Shown here: in pieces, positions 6,838-25,691 of the stretch
How the letters are laid out: each line of letters begins with the position of its first letter
Numbering within the stretch: position 1 is the stretch's first letter
Assembly (NCBI GenBank): GCA_030429545.1
Contig: JAUIFF010000001.1
Coordinates: forward strand, 83,599-147,598
Reading direction: 5' to 3'
DNA from: Polyangia bacterium
GTDB taxonomy: Bacteria; Myxococcota_A; Polyangia; Nannocystales; Nannocystaceae
Length of the DNA stretch: 64,000 nucleotides
Notes under the pieces: generated by a model
What the model was told of the DNA's origin: nothing
Seen by the model: the letters and a program-made list of their open reading frames with translations, nothing else
The model's database searches: none
Program-made: the position numbers and the translations under genes

Positions 6838-7587
6838 GTGGGGGAGCACCCAGTCCAAGGTTTTGGCTGGTCGGTGTCCTGTCCGGGGCGTTCGGCCACA
6901 CAGCTCGCAGGCGAGGTCGACGAGCTCGAGCGCACGGTTTCGCAGGCAGCCGAGCATTTCTTCCCTTCCGACAAGGGCTATGCGGTTGTGCGTACACAGG
7001 TCGACGGGCCTGTCGATGGCATCCGCATTGAGGTTCGCCGCGGCGACTTTGAGGCCCGCGTCGGGTTGGAGTGCTTTCGGCCGCAACGCCAGGGCGAGCG
7101 GCCGACGACCGCGCTTGCCGTGCGGATGTTTGGCCGCGCCGGGTCCTCCAAACTCGCCCAGGCCGAGCGCGCGGGTCATCGCCTCACCGAGCGTTTGCGC
7201 AAGGTTGGCACCGGGGTCGGGGTTGGAATTTTGCTGGTGATGTTTGGCTACATCCTGACCCACCCGCCACAGTACAGCGTCGATGCCCTCACGTTTTTGA
7301 GTGCCCTGCTGTTTGTCCTGGTCAGTATCGTTACGTTGTCGGCAACAAGCGAGGCGGGCGGGCGGCTGGGCCAGCGGATCGCCGCCATGAGTTGCGCCCG
7401 GGTGCAGGCCGAGCTCGACCACGACGACGGCTTTACCTCAGATGTCGAGCGTTGGCAGGTACTTTCGCGCGGTCTGGCGAGCCAGCGCTCCTCATTAGAT
7501 GGCGAGTTGCGCAGGCAGCCGTTTCGGACCATGCGCCGCGACTGGCAACCCGCGGCCCTACCGGTTGGCGAGACCGAGTCGAGTTAG
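6838..7587 (+). CDS. hypothetical membrane protein
   Basis: 249-aa ORF with GC3-rich codons and two predicted TM helices (GVGVGILLVMFGYIL..., FLSALLFVLVSIVTL). The competing antisense ORFs look like junk. Confidence 0.4.
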   Translation: MGEHPVQGFGWSVSCPGRSATQLAGEVDELERTVSQAAEHFFPSDKGYAVVRTQVDGPVDGIRIEVRRGDFEARVGLECFRPQRQGERPTTALAVRMFGRAGSSKLAQAERAGHRLTERLRKVGTGVGVGILLVMFGYILTHPPQYSVDALTFLSALLFVLVSIVTLSATSEAGGRLGQRIAAMSCARVQAELDHDDGFTSDVERWQVLSRGLASQRSSLDGELRRQPFRTMRRDWQPAALPVGETESS

Positions 7588-7652
7588 GTCGCCAGCGCAC
7601 ACTGGTTGTTTCTACAACGAGTTTGCGAAAACCATGCAGATACAAAAATAGG

Positions 7653-8276
7653 CTATTTCCAGGTCGCGCCGAGCCGGGCCTCGGTGGGGGTCACCGAGGT
7701 AATGCCCCATTTAATGTCCTTGGCACCGGCGGCCGCAAGCGCAGCCAACAACCCACCGGTCAGCATCCGGATGATCAGTCGCGTCTGCAGCGAGTGGGGG
7801 TAGGTCAGCACCACGTTGGCATGGTGGTCTCCATACTCGACCTCAAACACGGTCCCGCGGTGGAAGGTTTCCCAGCGTTTGGAGGCGCCACGCAGGATGT
7901 AGCGTGGCGAGATCACGGCCATCATCATGCGGTACAGCGGCGACTTGAACATGCGTTCGCGGACGTCGCGGTACCACGACACTGCTGCCCGCAGATCTTC
8001 GTTGTAAAAGTGGTCGGTCATCGCCAGCAAAAACGCGTTGTTTTGCACGGCCGGGATCCAGGTGTTGATCGGCTCCGGGTGTTCGAGCAGTGGCAACAGC
8101 TTGCTCGGGAGCTGGTCGACGATCGGCGTGAAGTCGTGCTCCTCGATCAGCCGGCGATACAGCGAGGCCTTGGCGATGCAATCGGGATAGGAGTCGAGAC
8201 CTTCCGGAAGGTTGCGAAGGTAGCCCGCGAGCCGCGGGAACTTGCGCGGGTCGACATCGGATTCGGAAACAGCCAT
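7653..8276 (-). CDS. hypothetical protein, DUF2378-like (myxobacterial paralogous family)
   Basis: 207-aa ORF with good codon bias. Resemblance to the Myxococcales-specific TIGR02265/DUF2378 family is from memory only. Confidence 0.45.
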   Translation of the reverse strand: MAVSESDVDPRKFPRLAGYLRNLPEGLDSYPDCIAKASLYRRLIEEHDFTPIVDQLPSKLLPLLEHPEPINTWIPAVQNNAFLLAMTDHFYNEDLRAAVSWYRDVRERMFKSPLYRMMMAVISPRYILRGASKRWETFHRGTVFEVEYGDHHANVVLTYPHSLQTRLIIRMLTGGLLAALAAAGAKDIKWGITSVTPTEARLGATWK

Positions 8277-20474: not shown

Positions 20475-20630
20475 GCAGACCTCCGGCGGACGCTAGGCCA
20501 TGGCGCGAAAGAATGCGAAAAAATCGCAATTTGAGGCGAACCATGCCGATCTCAAAGTCGCACGCCATCCCAGAAGTTTGACCGCGCAAAACCAACTGCT
20601 AGGGTCGGTGGCGATGGACGGACAGGGAGG

Positions 20631-20862
20631 ACAGGTCTAGCTACGTGCATCTGCACGGCGGGTGGCGCTGCGCCACCCAAGCGTCCTTTGCGACACACTT
20701 CACAAGGAAGGCTATTCCAGAATTTCGCTATCCCGCCGGTGCGTTCATACTGCCGACGGGCTGGCGCAACCCCGCGGATCGGAGTTCCGTACGGCAGTAT
20801 GAACGCACCGGCGGGGCGAATTCAGTGAGCCTTCCATATCCCAGGTCGAGGAGTAGACACTT
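20631..20862 (+). ncRNA. candidate structured RNA element, copy 1 (5' of the HU/IHF gene)
   Basis: Shares conserved blocks with 23922-24150. The inverted repeats between the blocks differ between copies but stay complementary. Confidence 0.45.
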
Positions 20863-20977
20863 CCTGTTCCGTCCATCGTTTTCGTGAATCCGTCGCAATT
20901 CTTCAGTGGACCGCCGGTGCTGGGGTTCGCCTTGACAGGCGCGTGCCGGCGGGCGACTCCACGGGGCGGAGAAGTCG

Positions 20978-21268
20978 ATGACGCGCAAAGAATTGGTCGA
21001 GTCGGTCACCCAAACAGTCGCAGCTTCGCTCGAGGTCGAGGTCGGCCGCCGCGAAGTTGCGGAGATCATCGATGCCGCTTTCGACCGGATCGGTGAGGCG
21101 ATTCGCAGCGAGGGACGCTACGCCCACCCGGGCTTTGGCACCTTCAAACTCCAGCGCCGCGGACCTCGGCCAGGGCTCAATCCACAGACGGGCGAGTCGA
21201 TTTTAACCCGTGCATCTGCAACGGTTGGATTTACGCCAGCAGCCCGGTTCAAGCAAACCCTGGGATAG
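20978..21268 (+). CDS. HU/IHF family DNA-binding protein
   Basis: MTRKELVESV...GFGTFKLQRRGPRPGLNPQTGESI...FKQ is the typical HU/IHF fold signature. 96 aa. Confidence 0.8.
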   Translation: MTRKELVESVTQTVAASLEVEVGRREVAEIIDAAFDRIGEAIRSEGRYAHPGFGTFKLQRRGPRPGLNPQTGESILTRASATVGFTPAARFKQTLG

Positions 21269-21441
21269 GGCGTGCGAACAAAAGGTGCCTATACACTTAT
21301 ATCGGGCGAGCGACCGGGAGCAGCGCGATGTTGCCCCGCTCGAACCCGCCGCCCGCAAGATCGCCCATCTCGTCCCCAACTTCTGGGGCCGGTACCCACG
21401 CCAATTGATACACTTTGCCCGCGTTAGCAGGAGACAGCGTC

Positions 21442-22848
21442 GTGAAACACACCCACGAGTTTGATGTAATTGTGATCGGTAGCGGACCAGGGGCCGAGGG
21501 CGCGGCGATGAAGGCTGCGAAGTCGGGCAAGTCAGTCGCAATTGTCGAACGTCATAGGATCGGTGGTGGTTGTACACACAAGGCGACGATCCCGAGTAAG
21601 GCGCTGCGCCACAGCGTGCGCATGATGACTGAACTGCGCCGCTCCCCGCTGTTTGCCGATGCGATTGCCCACTGCAACATCACCTTTCCCCAACTGATCC
21701 GCAGCGCCGAGTCGGTGATCTCGCGCCAGGTGTCGATGCGGCGCGACTTCTACGACCGCAACGATGTCCGGATTATCCACGGCCATGCCCGGTTTGCCGA
21801 CCCCCACACGATCGAGGTCGATCCGGTTGACGACCCGCGTAGCCCGGGGTGCACGCTGCGGGCCAAAAACTTTGTGATTGCCGTTGGTTCGCGGCCCTAT
21901 CGTCCGACCGATGTCGATTTCAGTCACGCGCGGGTGTTCGACAGCGACAAGATTTTAACCCTCGACCACACCCCACAAAGCATCACGATCTACGGGGCCG
22001 GCGTGGTCGGCTGTGAATATGCATCGATTTTTCGGACGCTCGGCGTCAAGGTCAACCTCGTCAACAGCCGCGACAAACTGCTGTCCTTCCTCGACGATGA
22101 GATTATCGATGCCCTGAGCTACCACCTGCGCGACCAGGGGGTGCTCATTCGCCACAACGAGGTCTACGAGCGGATCGAGCCGCACGCCGATCGGGTCGTC
22201 GTCCACCTGCGCTCGGGCAAGCGGATCAAGTCGGACATCGTGTTGTGGGCCCAGGGCCGGACAGGCAATACTCAAAACCTCGGGCTCGAACACCTCGACA
22301 TCACACCCAACAGCCGCGGGCAGCTCGAGATCGACGAATTCTACCGGACCTCACAGCCGCATGTGTATGCCACCGGCGATGTCGTGGGCTATCCGAGCCT
22401 GGCGTCGGCGGCCTACGACCAGGGGCGGTTTGCCGCGACCCATCTCGTTTCAGGCAAGTGCGATCATCGGCTTGTCGAGGACATCCCAACCGGCATCTAC
22501 ACAAATCCAGAGATCAGCTCAGTCGGTCGCACCGAACGCGAACTCACAGCCGAAAAGGTGCCCTACGAAGTGGGTCACTCGATGTTTCGCAGCCTCGCAC
22601 GGGCCCAGATCACCGGTCATACGGTCGGCATGCTGAAGATCCTGTTTCACCGCGAAACCCTGGAAATCCTCGGTGTGCACTGTTTTGGCGATCAGGCGGC
22701 AGAGATCGTGCACATCGGCCAGGCGATCATGGCCCAGTCGGGTGAGGCCAACCATCTCGAGTACTTCGTCAACACAACTTTCAACTACCCGACGATGGCA
22801 GAGGCCTACCGGGTTGCCGCGCTCAATGGCCTCAATCGAGTGTGCTAG
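21442..22848 (+). CDS. sthA: soluble pyridine nucleotide transhydrogenase (Si-specific NAD(P)+ transhydrogenase)
   Basis: Very high similarity to E. coli SthA along the whole length ([16 protein letters not shown]..., [17 protein letters not shown]..., ...[20 protein letters not shown]). GTG start with AGGAGA RBS. Confidence 0.9.
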
Positions 22849-23024
22849 GCGGTTTTTTGGCCGCCGCTCGGCCGCCGCAACGGATGCGTGCGCGGTCTGG
22901 CACGCAGCTTCTCGGCGTATGCGCGCGCGTTGGCGTGAACGTCGGTTGTCCAACACATGGGCGCAATCTCGGCCTGGAACTGATATGGTTCCAGCGCCTC
23001 ACCTGATGCGGGAGGACCTCGCCC

Positions 23025-23810
23025 ATGCCCGAGCATGAACTCGCCACGCGCACTTCGGTTACAGCCTACTACTCCCGTAGTCAGCTCTTGATCATCGCCG
23101 AAGGAAAACTCCCGACACCAGATTGGGAGATCGACATCAGCCAAGACCACTCGAGGTCTGAGCTGCCAACTTTCGTGCTCACACGGCGCCCGCGACCAGG
23201 CGATACGTCCAACGATGAGACGCCCTTTCGCTATGGCGAGATCTTTACGATCGGCCGTCCTCCCGACTACATCATGCTGCGCCATGTCGACGGCACCGAC
23301 CGTGTCAATGTCGAGTTTACCCGCGACGATCTCGTCGACATTGTGTTGAGCCTCAGCCTCGAAGACAGCGCCAGCGAGGTGCTTGAGATCCCGTTGAACC
23401 TCGATGCCGATGAGCGGCCACCCCCACCGTCGAAGCCGGTGATGGTCGGGAAGCCAGCGATGGTCGGTCAGCCGGCAACGGTCGGGAAGCCAGCGATGGT
23501 CGGCCAGCGAGCCAACCCGGGGCCAAACAACGGCGGAGGCCTGCAACTGTCGCCCGTCGGCGGTACAGCAACCCTCGGCAGCGACAGCAACCTGACCGAT
23601 ATGGGTGTCCGCTACCGCGAAGCCGTTGGCTATTCCAACAAGCTTTCGTTCGACGAAGCGTTTGCCGATGCCCTCAAGAAATTGCCACCTCCATCGATGA
23701 AGTTCCCCGACATGATGGAGACCGTCGAAGTCGTCCATATCGGCGGCACGTTCGGTGGAATCGCCGGCTTTCATCGGCTCGAAGTGCGGATTCGGGCCTA
23801 CCCAGACTGA
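23025..23810 (+). CDS. hypothetical protein with internal KPAMVGQPATVG tandem repeats
   Basis: GGGAGGA RBS, coding-like codon usage, 18-bp in-frame DNA repeats. The overlapping antisense ORF 22845-23891 is rejected. Confidence 0.45.
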   Translation: MPEHELATRTSVTAYYSRSQLLIIAEGKLPTPDWEIDISQDHSRSELPTFVLTRRPRPGDTSNDETPFRYGEIFTIGRPPDYIMLRHVDGTDRVNVEFTRDDLVDIVLSLSLEDSASEVLEIPLNLDADERPPPPSKPVMVGKPAMVGQPATVGKPAMVGQRANPGPNNGGGLQLSPVGGTATLGSDSNLTDMGVRYREAVGYSNKLSFDEAFADALKKLPPPSMKFPDMMETVEVVHIGGTFGGIAGFHRLEVRIRAYPD

Positions 23811-23921
23811 TGTGTCTGTGGGGGCTGCCACGAAAGTTCGTCTGGCCGGATTGAGCTGTTGATCTGGGTCCCAAGAGCGTGGTATTTCCAATTCCGTTCA
23901 AACCCACCCGCGAGGAGTGAA

Positions 23922-24150
23922 ACAGGTCTAGCTTGTACTTCGGTACGTGATCGGCGTTGCGCCGCTCGAGCAAACTTCATCCCATTCATCACAAGGAAGG
24001 CTATTCCAGAATGTCGCTATCCCGAGAAGTACCCGTAGACGGCGACGGGCTGGAGCAACCTCGCGCATCGAAGTTCCGTACGCCGTCTACGGGTACTTCT
24101 CGGGGCGCATTCAGTGAGCCTTCCATGTCCCAGGTCTTGAGGTAGACTAC
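23922..24150 (+). ncRNA. candidate structured RNA element, copy 2 (paralogue of 20631-20862)
   Basis: Same conserved blocks. Variable helix with compensatory substitutions. Followed by a rho-independent terminator. Confidence 0.45.
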
Positions 24151-24184
24151 TTTCTCGCTACAAATTTTGGACGCTCTCATGCGG

Positions 24185-24228
24185 CCGGCAAAGCATCCCC
24201 CCTAAGAACGCTTTGCCGGTCCTTTTTA
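24185..24228 (+). terminator. rho-independent terminator
   Basis: ccggcaaagc-loop-gctttgccgg followed by tccttttt. Confidence 0.65.
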
Positions 24229-24329
24229 AATGGTTTTGGGCGCGCGGGTTCTTTTGGCCGTGAGACCGGCCCTGAGAAGCTTGCAGTAGGTGACTACAGC
24301 TTCGCTTCTCAGGGCTCGGTTCACGGCCA

Positions 24330-25400
24330 AAAGCCCTCCGCGAATCTTGGTGCGGGGTGTTCGGGAAGCGTAGGCGTTTGGTGTTCGGGAAGCGTAGCGG
24401 GAAGCGCGGGCGTTTTGGTGTTCGGGAAGCGTAGGCGTTTGGTGTTCGGGAAGCGTTTGGTGTTCGGGAAGCGTAGGGTCGCTAGGGTGCGGGTTTGGTG
24501 TTTGGGTAGCGCAGGCGTTTGGGGTAGCGCAGGCGTTTGGGGTTGTCGGGTAGCGCAGGCGTTTGGTGTTCGGGAAGCGTAGGGTCGCTAGGGTTCGGGT
24601 TTGGTGTTTGGGTAGCGCGGGTTCGGGAAGCGTAGGCGTTTGGTGTTCGGAACGCGTAGGCGTTTGGTGTTCGGGAAGCGTAGGCGGTGTTTGGGTAGCG
24701 CAGGCGATGGTTGGGTTGCGCGGGCGTTGGTGTTTGGCGCAGGCGTTTGGTGTTCGGGTTGGGTAGCGCGGGCGTGTTGGGGTAGCGCGGGGCGTTTGGT
24801 CGCGCGTGTTGGGCGTGTTGGGGTAGCGCGTGTTGGGCGTGTTGGGGCGTTTGGTCGGGTGTTGAGTCGCGCGGGCATGTTGGGCTAGCGCGGGTGTTTG
24901 GTCGGGGTTGGGTAGCGCGGGGCGTTTGGTCGCGGTTGGGTAGCGTGGGGTAGCGGAAGTTTGGCCGCAGCGTGGGGTTCGTTTGTAGTGGTTGGGGTAG
25001 CCGACATTGGTCGCAGGGGTGCGGGGTTCGTTTGGGTAGCGTGGGGGGTCGTTTGTAGTGGTTGGGGTAGCCGACATTGGTCGCAGGGTGCGGGGTTCGT
25101 TTGGGTAGCGCCGACGTTTGGCCGCAGGGTGGGGGTTCGTTTGTAGTAGTTGGTAGCGCCGTCGCTTGGTCGCAGGTGCGGGCCTCGTTTTGGGTGATGG
25201 TCGCGGTTGGGTCGCGCCGACGTTTGGTCGCAAGGTGCCGGCTTCGTTTTGGGTAGTGGTTGGGTGGCGTTTGGTCCGGCGGGGTTTCGTGTCGGGTAGC
25301 GCGGAAGTTTGGCCGCAGGGTGGGGTTCATTTGTAGTGGTTGGGTAGCCGACGTTTGGTCGCAGGGGGGCGGGGTTCGTTTGGGTAGCGCCGACGTTCCC
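24330..25400. repeat. ~1.1 kb degenerate G/T-rich tandem repeat (minisatellite-like)
   Basis: Units such as gcgtaggcgtttggtgttcgggaa and ggtagcgccgacgtttggccgcagggtgggggttcgtttgtagtggttg iterated head-to-tail. Strong strand asymmetry. No spacer periodicity. Confidence 0.8.
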
Positions 25401-25691
25401 GACTGGCTGTTGAGGGCCGGCCTCGACTGCTGTGCGACGTACTTCGCAGTTGCCTGTTCTTTTTGTGTGCCCCGGGGGAGCCGCTGGTCGTCGTTGGTCG
25501 GTTGTGCCGGTTTTCTATTGTGTCGGGGCGGACTTGCCTGCGGGCCTTGGTCTTGTTCAGTTGGTTCGTTCGATTGCCTCTGCTGTGAGGCCTGCTTCAC
25601 AGTTGATGGCTTTGGCGGGGATATTTTTACGGTCTGCGAGTTTGATGTACGGTGCACGTCGATCCGCTGCTGCGGTTCGAGGAGCAAGTCT

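Follow-up and report, generated by a model that had tools for sequence, protein, structure and literature searches.

Two paralogous RNA elements and their surroundings

The window, i.e., the whole stretch of 64,000 nt analysed here (Polyangia bacterium, Nannocystaceae; assembly GCA_030429545.1, contig JAUIFF010000001.1, 83,599 to 147,598, forward strand), harbored two paralogous elements of about 260 nt each, both on the + strand, at 20613-20877 and ~23912-24168. All coordinates are positions within the window, whose closest assemblies were Nannocystaceae and Polyangia metagenome-assembled genomes. The two copies were separated by 3.3 kb and were the only ones retrieved in the 64 kb with a covariance model (R1). 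An earlier note, made from the sequence, had described the pair, which was recovered at the same place with its four common blocks aligning as claimed; 18-nt core blocks each occurred exactly twice in the window (0-0.01 expected from shuffles). The elements had been delimited too short in that note: an outer closing helix extends copy 1 (20613-20877) by about 18 nt per side and copy 2 (23912-24168) by about 10-18 nt. Features of the two copies are as follows.

20578-20605, +, promoter-like site of copy 1, read from the sequence: -35 TTGACC (20578-20583), 16-nt spacer, extended -10 TGcTAGGGT (hexamer 20600-20605)
20613-20877, +, ncRNA copy 1 (w1), complete retron-type msr-msd gene (R1 234.9 bits, E = 6e-74)
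20613-20639, +, a2, 5' strand of the closing helix of copy 1 (fold and alignment)
20640, +, predicted priming (branch) G of copy 1, inside UAGC
20644-20678, +, msr hairpins of copy 1 (fold and covariation): CGTGC-ATCT-GCACG (20644-20657) and GGGTGGCG-CTG-CGCCACCC (20660-20678)
20699-20853, +, predicted msd template of copy 1, ~150-155 nt, with a putative 5' limit (cDNA fold and near Watson-Crick-only stem)
20736-20755, +, variable arm of copy 1, 5' side (CCGGTGCGTTCATACTGCCG)
20756-20791, +, conserved apical element of copy 1 (ACGGGCTGG.GCAACC-hairpin-GTTCCGT)
20792-20811, +, variable arm of copy 1, 3' side, perfect complement of 20736-20755
20854-20877, +, a1, 3' strand of the closing helix of copy 1 (fold and alignment)
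23859-23888, +, promoter-like site of copy 2, read from the sequence: -35 TTGATC (23859-23864), 18-nt spacer, extended -10 TGgTATTTC (hexamer 23883-23888)
23912-24168, +, ncRNA copy 2 (w2), complete retron-type msr-msd gene (R1 238.5 bits, E = 4e-75)
23931, +, predicted priming G of copy 2 within UAGC, placed as in known retrons (PMC6868368)
23988-24142, +, predicted msd template of copy 2 (cDNA fold)
24025-24044, +, variable arm of copy 2, 5' side (AGAAGTACCCGTAGACGGCG)
24081-24100, +, variable arm of copy 2, 3' side, perfect complement of 24025-24044
24181-24235, +, intrinsic terminator of copy 2, read from the sequence: GCGGCCGGCAAAGC...GCTTTGCCGG then TCCTTTTT

Both RNAs were predicted to fold far more stably than shuffled sequences (-129.4 kcal/mol, z = -8.8 for copy 1; -114.6 kcal/mol, z = -7.3 for copy 2). 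The small open reading frames called over the two copies did not share a frame with respect to the conserved block CACAAGGAAGGCT, as noted earlier, and we agree that both elements are predicted non-coding, structured RNA genes of the + strand. Scanning the whole window with the Rfam 15 covariance models returned no match at gathering thresholds, in agreement with the earlier reading. Sub-threshold matches were to microRNA hairpins only, fell on both strands and were trivial matches to a long hairpin.

The promoter-like motif TTGAYC...TGnTAnnnT was found upstream of all eight Myxococcota copies (8/8) within otherwise diverged surroundings, and that of copy 2 was identical in its ortholog L005a, the flanks of which were only ~57% identical. 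The site of copy 1 was not listed by a simple consensus promoter scan, and the terminator of copy 2 was missed by a simple scan because its loop exceeds 8 nt. An equivalent hairpin and T-run lay 3' of three homologs (L005a, L011a, L013b), and a T-run reaching 20885 followed copy 1. Copy 2 is, as first proposed, a stand-alone unit with a terminator at its end. Each copy appears to be a gene of its own with a conserved promoter-like site, from which it would be transcribed.

Retron-type architecture and pairing of the long stem

Homologs were gathered by a DNA pattern scan and with R1 (E = 1e-52 to 1e-76), and 17 of them were used for the family structure. The ends of copy 1 pair through the outer helix GATGGACGGACAGGGAGG / CTTCCTGTTCCGTCCATC and through inner closing pairs between GTCTA (20635-20639) and TAGAC (20854-20858). 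Such a2/a1 duplexes (-7.6 to -22.1 kcal/mol) formed in 17/17 homologs, and the inner helix (helix 1) covaried. Directly 3' of a2 stood UAGC in 16 homologs and CAGC in the remaining one; according to PMC6868368, a TAGC at the point where the 5' stem strand ends on its inner side is the usual place of the priming G in retrons. The two msr helices (helices 2 and 3) both covaried and were 98-99% paired. The two small hairpins of copy 1 described earlier stand as covarying helices, with the first corrected from GTGCA-TCT-TGCAC and the second from GTGGCGC-T-GCGCCAC to the forms given above. They are followed by an interrupted hairpin of ~50 bp, in line with the definition of retron ncRNA in section 16 of PMC7736814 (one to three msr hairpins, then one long stable msd stem-loop). 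The overall architecture (a2/a1 helix, UAGC, two msr hairpins, long msd hairpin) is that of a retron msr-msd RNA, from which a bacterial reverse transcriptase makes a small DNA hairpin.

The predicted msd of copy 1 starts at the base helix GGAAGGCT/AGCCTTCC, runs through the long hairpin and ends at the base adjoining a1. When the reverse complements of the msd regions (155 nt) were folded as DNA, they reached -57.1 kcal/mol (z = -11.4) for copy 1 and -55.5 kcal/mol (z = -11.3) for copy 2. The variable 20-bp helix in the middle of the stem was as initially reported, both pairs of arms being perfectly complementary and the arm sequences differing between the copies. Copy 1 and its ortholog L005b differed at 8 of the 20 stem positions, all compensated, and the arm of L013a corresponded to that of copy 2 with two compensated changes. 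The apical GCAAC...GUU core persisted even in low-GC homologs.

Across the 17 homologs, 94.7% of the family structure was paired (74.5% in shuffles, 36-45% in slid controls), changes on both sides were found in 38/56 pairs, and none of 500 shuffles reached the observed values. The covarying helices and conserved apical loop of the earlier reading were thereby borne out.

G·U pairs were nearly absent from the long msd stem (2/636 pairs) and made up 8-9% of the RNA-only helices (23/266 in the msr hairpins, 17/192 in a2/a1), in counts drawn from sequences that are partly orthologs and hence not independent. This near-absence is expected if the stem has to pair as DNA as well, and the G·U pairs of the RNA-only helices indicate that the + strand is the transcript. 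A conserved G·U closing ACGGG/UUCCGU in the apical element fits pairing at the RNA level better than at the DNA level. A shortage of G·U pairs in the msd stem and in no other helix provides a simple signature separating reverse-transcribed from RNA-only helices. The variability of the helix, from which a "programmable" stem had been proposed, stands; the programmable reading does not, the helix being the msd stem, part of the region predicted to be copied into DNA.

Type XIII operons elsewhere and orphan copies in Myxococcota

In other genomes, RNA homologs lay directly upstream, on the same strand, of a gene recognised by PADLOC HEAT-ARM_XIII (E values as low as 1e-235) at at least seven loci (L002, L009, L019, L037, L040, L048 (=L038) and L049). 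Three tandem copies with different stems preceded the planctomycete operon of L037. The full operon order in L048 and L049 (Frigoriglobus tundricola CP053452.2) was RNA, HEAT-ARM, giant HEAT-ARM, a ~120-aa protein, a ~620-aa protein (SWIM) and an RVT_1 reverse transcriptase (RT). The L039 counterparts of these operon proteins matched SWIM_XIII (E = 3e-186) and RT_XIII (E = 2e-40). In Mestre et al. 2020 (PMC7736814), HEAT/ARM, SWIM and RT (clade 10) are the components by which type XIII retrons are defined. In L048 and L049 the RT lay in the same operon as the RNA, ~12.5 kb downstream, and the gaps beside it were only ~125-130 nt, leaving no room there for another ncRNA. The first HEAT/ARM gene of L040 and L041 had neither giant HEAT/ARM, SWIM nor RT nearby, and the RNA occurred in L040 only. 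No copies of the RNA family were found in phages or plasmids.

The RNA therefore belongs to the type XIII retron family, as RNAs of this family head HEAT/ARM-SWIM-RT operons; retron identity had been rejected earlier because no RT gene was nearby. The window locus itself consists of orphan ncRNA genes and is not a complete retron. No RT (sought by RVT_1 match and YxDD motif), SWIM or HEAT/ARM gene was detected in the 64-kb window, so that both copies are orphans: no RT gene adjoins the ncRNAs, nor does one occur within at least 20 kb 5' and 39 kb 3' of the copies, and the set of clade 10 RT, SWIM and HEAT/ARM proteins that makes up a type XIII system is missing from the window. A conserved protein partner, which the earlier note had suggested looking for, thus exists in other genomes (HEAT/ARM, SWIM, RT) and is absent here.

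The orphan arrangement was also found in three other Myxococcota assemblies, L005 (three copies, with a recent tandem duplication), L011 and L013, where copies were syntenic around HU, sthA and hyp261 genes. Copy 2 was 95.8% identical to its ortholog L005a, while adjacent coding genes were 79-83% and intergenic flanks ~57% identical, and the stems of orthologous copies differed by compensated changes. Judging from these comparisons, the orphan copies are syntenic across genera and appear to be under purifying selection.

Proposed function and comparison with known retrons

We consider it likely that the two copies are complete, independently transcribed type XIII retron msr-msd genes, orphan at this locus and used in trans by a distal RT. 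Each RNA would be transcribed from its own sigma-70-like promoter, and its ends would pair as the a2/a1 helix. A type XIII RT encoded elsewhere in the genome would recognise the conserved msr hairpins and prime from the 2'-OH of the G in UAGC (G20640, G23931). The msd would then be copied from about 20853 back to 20699 and from 24142 back to 23988, with predicted ends, giving branched msDNA of about 150 nt. Of the courses considered, copying of both RNAs by such a distal RT is the most likely. No RT was found for the source organism, the genome of which is known from the window and short metagenome contigs, and use in trans is therefore assumed. The ncRNA of classical myxobacterial retrons is described as contiguous with the RT, which counts against such use.

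The msDNA would fold into a long hairpin, with conserved basal internal loops and the apical element as likely protein-recognition features. The 20-bp middle stem would be free to vary as long as its arms stay Watson-Crick complementary, so that different copies may give different msDNA species working with the HEAT/ARM-SWIM-RT machinery, possibly in defence.

It is unlikely that the copies are instead exapted, RT-independent RNAs derived from retron ncRNAs, such as scaffolds or sponges for HEAT/ARM-type or nucleoid proteins, acting without reverse transcription. The lack of an RT in 64 kb, the strong conservation with own promoter-like site and terminator, the HU/IHF-like gene adjoining the RNA in three genomes, and the HEAT/ARM gene of L040 and L041, as an example of system parts occurring apart from the RT, would all suit such a role. 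However, an RNA-only function leaves the G·U shortage of the long stem unexplained, UAGC and the a2/a1 helix are kept invariant in orphans although needed for priming only, and a HEAT/ARM gene is missing from the window.

Less probable still are non-functional relics, dispersed duplicates or retrotransposed msr-msd copies persisting by chance. The tandem duplication in L005 is compatible with relics, and Lampson & Rice, as summarised in PMC6868368, read the repeats of Nannocystis exedens as possible retrotransposition. Against this stand the synteny across genera, conservation above that of adjacent coding genes, the retained promoter-like and terminator motifs and stem changes that are always compensated. 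The copies also carry a2 and the msr hairpins, which lie outside the DNA moiety of msDNA and which a retro-copied msDNA should lack, making duplication at the DNA level more likely.

Very little speaks for cis-regulation of the HU/IHF-like gene by a riboswitch or by a 5' leader, the latter having been proposed earlier for copy 1. The HU-like gene does lie about 100 nt downstream of the end of copy 1 and shares its strand, but copy 1 has its own promoter-like site and a T-run after the closing helix, copy 2 closes with a terminator and is followed by no gene, L013 has its HU gene upstream of the RNA, the RNA precedes HEAT/ARM genes in other phyla, and no Rfam riboswitch matched. Just as implausible is a DNA-level palindromic repeat (MITE-/REP-like or a recombination site) without RNA function, to which the short terminal inverted repeats GGTCTA/TAGACC, the perfect long palindrome and the several copies per genome could point, but which is at odds with strand-specific G·U pairs (msr and a2/a1 helices of the + strand together have 40), a fixed orientation relative to the retron operon in seven loci, inner arms wholly different between conserved flanks (unlike MITE copies), only two copies in 64 kb and none in phages or plasmids.

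Returning to type XIII msr-msd genes used in trans, a broader scheme may be put forward tentatively, and we hold it to be less probable than not: Nannocystaceae and Polyangia could possess a multiplexed retron, in which a single distal set of type XIII RT and effectors serves several dispersed or tandem ncRNA genes with their own promoters. The stems would diversify fast, their arms perhaps kept complementary by quasi-palindrome template switching, each msDNA variant might be a separate sensor or decoy, and the L037 arrays would be the linked form. If one RT indeed serves several unlinked or tandem templates, this would set a precedent from nature for multiplexed retron editing and open a route to studying type XIII retrons.

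An apparently novel programmable RNA thus finds its place in a known class that has been little studied, the type XIII retrons, and a covariance model with 17 diverse sequences becomes available for a retron ncRNA family missing from Rfam. For Nannocystaceae, the results also provide evidence that msr/msd copies lacking an RT are not debris but conserved genes that carry promoters.

In Retron-Eco1 (Ec86), the ncRNA is contiguous with the RT and the msd hairpin tolerates sequence replacement. The window copies follow a similar logic (inverted repeats, priming G in TAGC, msr hairpins, a replaceable msd hairpin, and msDNA that would act with effectors), but they share no sequence similarity with Retron-Eco1, belong with another RT clade and other effectors, and have a much longer msd with conserved apical and basal elements.

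Type XIII, as listed in Mestre et al. 2020 (PMC7736814), corresponds to RT clade 10 and is the class of Retron-Mxa1 (Mx162), Mxa2 (Mx65), Sau1 (Sa163) and Nex2 (Ne144). The window RNAs resemble type XIII ncRNA in belonging to the family that heads HEAT/ARM_XIII, SWIM_XIII and RT_XIII operons, in the architecture described above and in their myxobacterial host, and the predicted msDNA of ~150 nt falls within the size range of Ne144, Ne160 and Mx162, a likeness of size and architecture rather than of aligned sequence. Unlike type XIII systems, they have no linked RT, SWIM or HEAT/ARM gene; in planctomycete type XIII operons the RNA does not adjoin the RT either, lying ~12.5 kb upstream of it.

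A parallel in arrangement is Retron-Nex1 (Ne160) of the related myxobacterium Nannocystis exedens, for which the passage of PMC6868368 citing Lampson & Rice 1997 gives several msr/msd repeats and no RT within 1 kb. The window likewise carries several msr/msd copies with no RT within 1 kb, in the same family Nannocystaceae, a likeness drawn from that description. Beyond Retron-Nex1, the window copies are complete, with their own promoter-like site and terminator, and are syntenic across genera under apparent purifying selection, which favors DNA-level duplication and continued function over retrotransposed relics.

Two paralogous structured elements and their homologs

Two elements were found where the earlier note, made from the sequence alone, had placed them. 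Their alignment spans ~260 nt and comprises four near-identical blocks plus two 20-nt segments that differ completely:

20613-20877, + strand: RNA copy 1 (w1)
20736-20755 and 20792-20811: variable arms of w1
23912-24168, + strand: RNA copy 2 (w2)
24025-24044 and 24081-24100: variable arms of w2

Each core block occurred exactly twice in the window (0-0.01 expected from shuffles), and the complementarity claimed for the variable arms was perfect within each pair. Fold stability was far above that of shuffled controls (z = -8.8 for w1 and -7.3 for w2). The element was larger than first described, as an outer helix of GATGGACGGACAGGGAGG (from 20613) and CTTCCTGTTCCGTCCATC (to 20877) encloses the whole of w1. 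The small ORFs over the copies did lie in frames that differ relative to the conserved block, and a coding reading was ruled out by these frames together with the covarying helices.

Rfam 15 gave no match in the window at gathering thresholds. The Rfam comparison proposed at the outset, here run on the window and five loci at gathering and permissive thresholds, returned no known family; spurious microRNA-hairpin matches, on both strands at permissive thresholds, are trivial for any long hairpin. A tRNA/tmRNA scan found nothing. The suggestion of a target-specifying variable stem fared less well: a window search gave only self-matches and chance words of up to 12 nt, and a guide or antisense role of the arms within these 64 kb has no support.

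One genome per species was scanned with two conserved loop motifs as pattern, chance matches accounting for 11 of the 16 loci retrieved. True homologs were present in Myxococcota MAGs assigned to Nannocystaceae (L005, three RNA copies), Polyangia (L011) and Myxococcales (L013, two copies), and unexpectedly in low-GC Cyanobacteriota/Sericytochromatia MAGs (L002, L009). One further true homolog (L019) came from a pattern scan of metagenomes, the remaining matches of which arose by chance; viral contigs and phage and plasmid collections yielded no homolog. Searches with nhmmer and a covariance model of the family (built from 14 sequences) located the RNA directly upstream of a HEAT/ARM gene in further loci. 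The copies sought in relatives were found in Myxococcota, Cyanobacteriota/Sericytochromatia and Planctomycetota.

Further loci with the RNA upstream of a HEAT/ARM gene
L037: three RNA copies in tandem (6960-7863), each with a different msd stem, directly upstream of a HEAT-ARM_XIII gene
L040: one RNA copy, upstream of a HEAT/ARM gene
L038/L048: one RNA copy, upstream of a HEAT/ARM gene
L049 (Frigoriglobus tundricola, complete genome): one RNA copy, upstream of a HEAT/ARM gene

The L037 arrangement resembles a naturally occurring array of retron templates. Two near-identical tandem copies were also observed in L005 (5522-6131), at the position of w1.

Type XIII retron operons and msr-msd anatomy

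Type XIII retrons are defined by HEAT/ARM proteins together with a SWIM-domain protein and a reverse transcriptase (RT) of clade 10, and include the myxobacterial Mx162, Mx65, Sa163 and Ne144 (Mestre et al. 2020, PMC7736814). In L002, L009 and L019, the three low-GC loci, the RNA lay just upstream of a same-strand gene matching PADLOC HEAT-ARM_XIII, an accessory protein of these retrons, with E = 1e-122 to 1e-136 where the gene was sufficiently complete; homologs of this protein led to the further loci. Conserved protein partners of the kind that the earlier note had proposed to look for (HEAT/ARM, SWIM, RT) are encoded near the RNA in other genomes. Whole operons in L048 and L049 were ordered as RNA, HEAT/ARM, giant ~2,290-aa HEAT/ARM, ~120-aa protein, ~620-aa protein and RVT_1 reverse transcriptase, and the homologous proteins of L039 matched SWIM_XIII (E = 3e-186) and RT_XIII (E = 2e-40). 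The RT of L048 and L049 is bordered by intergenic gaps of no more than ~125-130 nt, which leaves this RNA as the sole candidate retron ncRNA of these operons.

Retron ncRNAs are expected to have pairing terminal inverted repeats, one to three msr hairpins and a long msd hairpin, with the priming G at the inner end of the 5' strand, usually in TAGC (PMC6868368; PMC7736814). All of these features were present in the RNA family. The closing helix (a2/a1) formed in 17 of 17 homologs, the priming motif was UAGC in 16 copies and CAGC in the other, and two covarying hairpins were followed by a ~50-bp interrupted hairpin. Covariation, first claimed from two copies, was borne out on the 17-sequence alignment, with 94.7% of cells pairing versus 74.5% in shuffles and changes on both sides in 38 of 56 pairs; no shuffle or slid register came close. 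The initial exclusion of a retron, for want of an RT gene, does not stand, as homologs head type XIII operons elsewhere and the anatomy is that of a retron. From these operons and this anatomy, w1 and w2 are type XIII retron ncRNAs occurring as RT-less orphans.

Parts of the system were also seen apart. L039 (74% GC) carries a full HEAT-ARM / giant HEAT-ARM / SWIM_XIII / RT_XIII operon (1-22106), and no RNA copy was detected with default filters in its 22 kb, in L036 or in L041, nor in L039 6000-14000 with filters off. L040 and L041 have the first HEAT/ARM gene only, with the RNA present in the former and absent in the latter. Type XIII parts can therefore be unlinked. Myxobacterial RTs sought with the planctomycete RT as query gave close planctomycete relatives only, among the 120 matches listed. 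The low-GC loci lie in defence-island contexts, with a type III-B CRISPR Cmr1 gene in L019 (2231-3277) and a BrxHI/Lhr-like helicase in L009 (1977-4094).

Wobble pairs and reverse transcription

G·U pairs, which an RNA-only helix tolerates, turn into C·A in the complement and are therefore not tolerated in a helix that must also form in cDNA.

Base pairs by helix in the RNA family
msd long stem: 634 Watson-Crick, 2 G·U
msr hairpins: 243 Watson-Crick, 23 G·U
a2/a1 helix: 175 Watson-Crick, 17 G·U

The sequences are partly related and the counts carry no formal probability; the contrast is large and in the predicted direction. Exaptation of the element as an RNA-only structure would leave this pattern unexplained, as well as the retention of the priming features. 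Strand-specific wobble pairs, and an orientation that is fixed ahead of retron operons, contradict a DNA palindrome or MITE. The G·U pairs of the RNA-only helices further mark the + strand as the transcript.

The predicted 155-nt cDNAs of the retron reading folded as DNA at -57 (w1) and -55 (w2) kcal/mol (z ~ -11). Read as RNA, the apical 7-bp hairpin (20769-20787 and 24058-24076; AAC..../....GTT) had a C·A apposition that is conserved. Such A·C appositions occurred in ~10 of 17 homologs, from about two independent events, and true G·U pairs in none, the single one counted being a mis-parsed row. As an A·C apposition is a G·T wobble in cDNA, this gives a weaker hint that the apical hairpin was selected in its DNA form.

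Maintenance of the orphan copies

The window encodes housekeeping functions (VanW, an HU/IHF-like protein, SthA transhydrogenase, penicillin amidase, kinases, P450 and others), and no RT, SWIM or HEAT/ARM gene was found in its 64 kb by Pfam on 30 ORFs, a YxDD motif scan or tblastn with HEAT/ARM, SWIM and RT proteins. The covariance model recovered the two copies only. The same neighbourhood also bears RNA copies in L005, L011 and L013, at shifting positions.

Gene order around the RNA copies
Window and L005: RNA / HU / sthA / hyp261 / RNA
L013: HU / RNA / sthA / hyp261 / RNA

All eight Myxococcota copies were preceded by a promoter-like TTGAYC-N16-18-TGnTAnnnT and followed by either a GC-rich hairpin or the closing helix, with a T-run. 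Identity between w2 and its L005 ortholog was 95.8%, compared with 79-83% (nucleotide) for adjacent genes and ~57% for intergenic flanks. Orthologous stems differed by compensated changes (w2 versus L013a; L011a versus L013b), and 8 of 20 stem positions changed between w1 and L005b with perfect pairing kept in both arms. This conservation and compensation contradict the view of the copies as relics; judging from their sequences, they are maintained genes and not debris. The reading of w1 as an HU-gene leader or riboswitch is rejected by synteny, HU being upstream of the RNA in L013, and by the terminators. Since a2 and the msr hairpins are part of the copies, duplication at the DNA level seems a likelier origin than the retro-copying of msDNA.

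In the window, as in L005 and L013, the HU/IHF-like gene (20978-21268) has an RNA copy next to it, but on differing sides; its protein was matched only on short metagenome contigs. The assemblies nearest to the window are Nannocystaceae and Polyangia MAGs. In every Myxococcota locus a conserved gene, that of the 261-aa hyp261 (23025-23810 in the window; 64-82% identity), separates sthA from the RNA copy downstream. It includes a tandem repeat of 18 nt (23432-23503), and its product had no Pfam, NCBIfam or PADLOC match. Immediately past the w2 terminator is an inverted repeat (24251-24333; 30-nt arms, 87% complementary, 23 nt apart), absent downstream of the w2 ortholog in L005. Degenerate tandem repeats (24360-24950, period 18-24, GGTGTTCGGGAAGCGTAGGCGTTT) fall within two ORFs of the - strand that overlap each other (24226-25233 and 24482-25687). 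Neither ORF had a Pfam match and the latter also had no NCBIfam match; they possibly encode repetitive low-complexity protein. Independent assemblies of the locus in metagenome contigs of the same organism (L042, L043) stop ~100 nt past w2, probably breaking at this repeat-rich stretch.

As retron ncRNAs, the copies would each be transcribed separately and bound at the msr hairpins by a type XIII RT encoded elsewhere; priming at G20640 or G23931 would then copy the msd region into ~150-nt branched hairpin DNA. Use in trans is plausible because L039 is the mirror image, its full protein operon lacking any RNA copy inside 22 kb. Recognition probably falls on the basal loops and the apical element, which are conserved, and the 20 bp in the middle can presumably vary as long as they remain Watson-Crick paired; we consider quasi-palindrome template switching a plausible way of keeping the arms matched.

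The structure is real, well observed and of a known kind, and the new part is modest: an RNA family missing from Rfam, its place in Planctomycetota at the head of the operon and distant from the RT, tandem arrays with different stems, and orphans that, from promoter-like sites, appear to be conserved, promoter-bearing genes. RT-less msr/msd copies were reported in Nannocystis in 1997 (Lampson & Rice, as cited in PMC6868368), and the window, which derives from an uncultured relative, holds orphans of the same sort.
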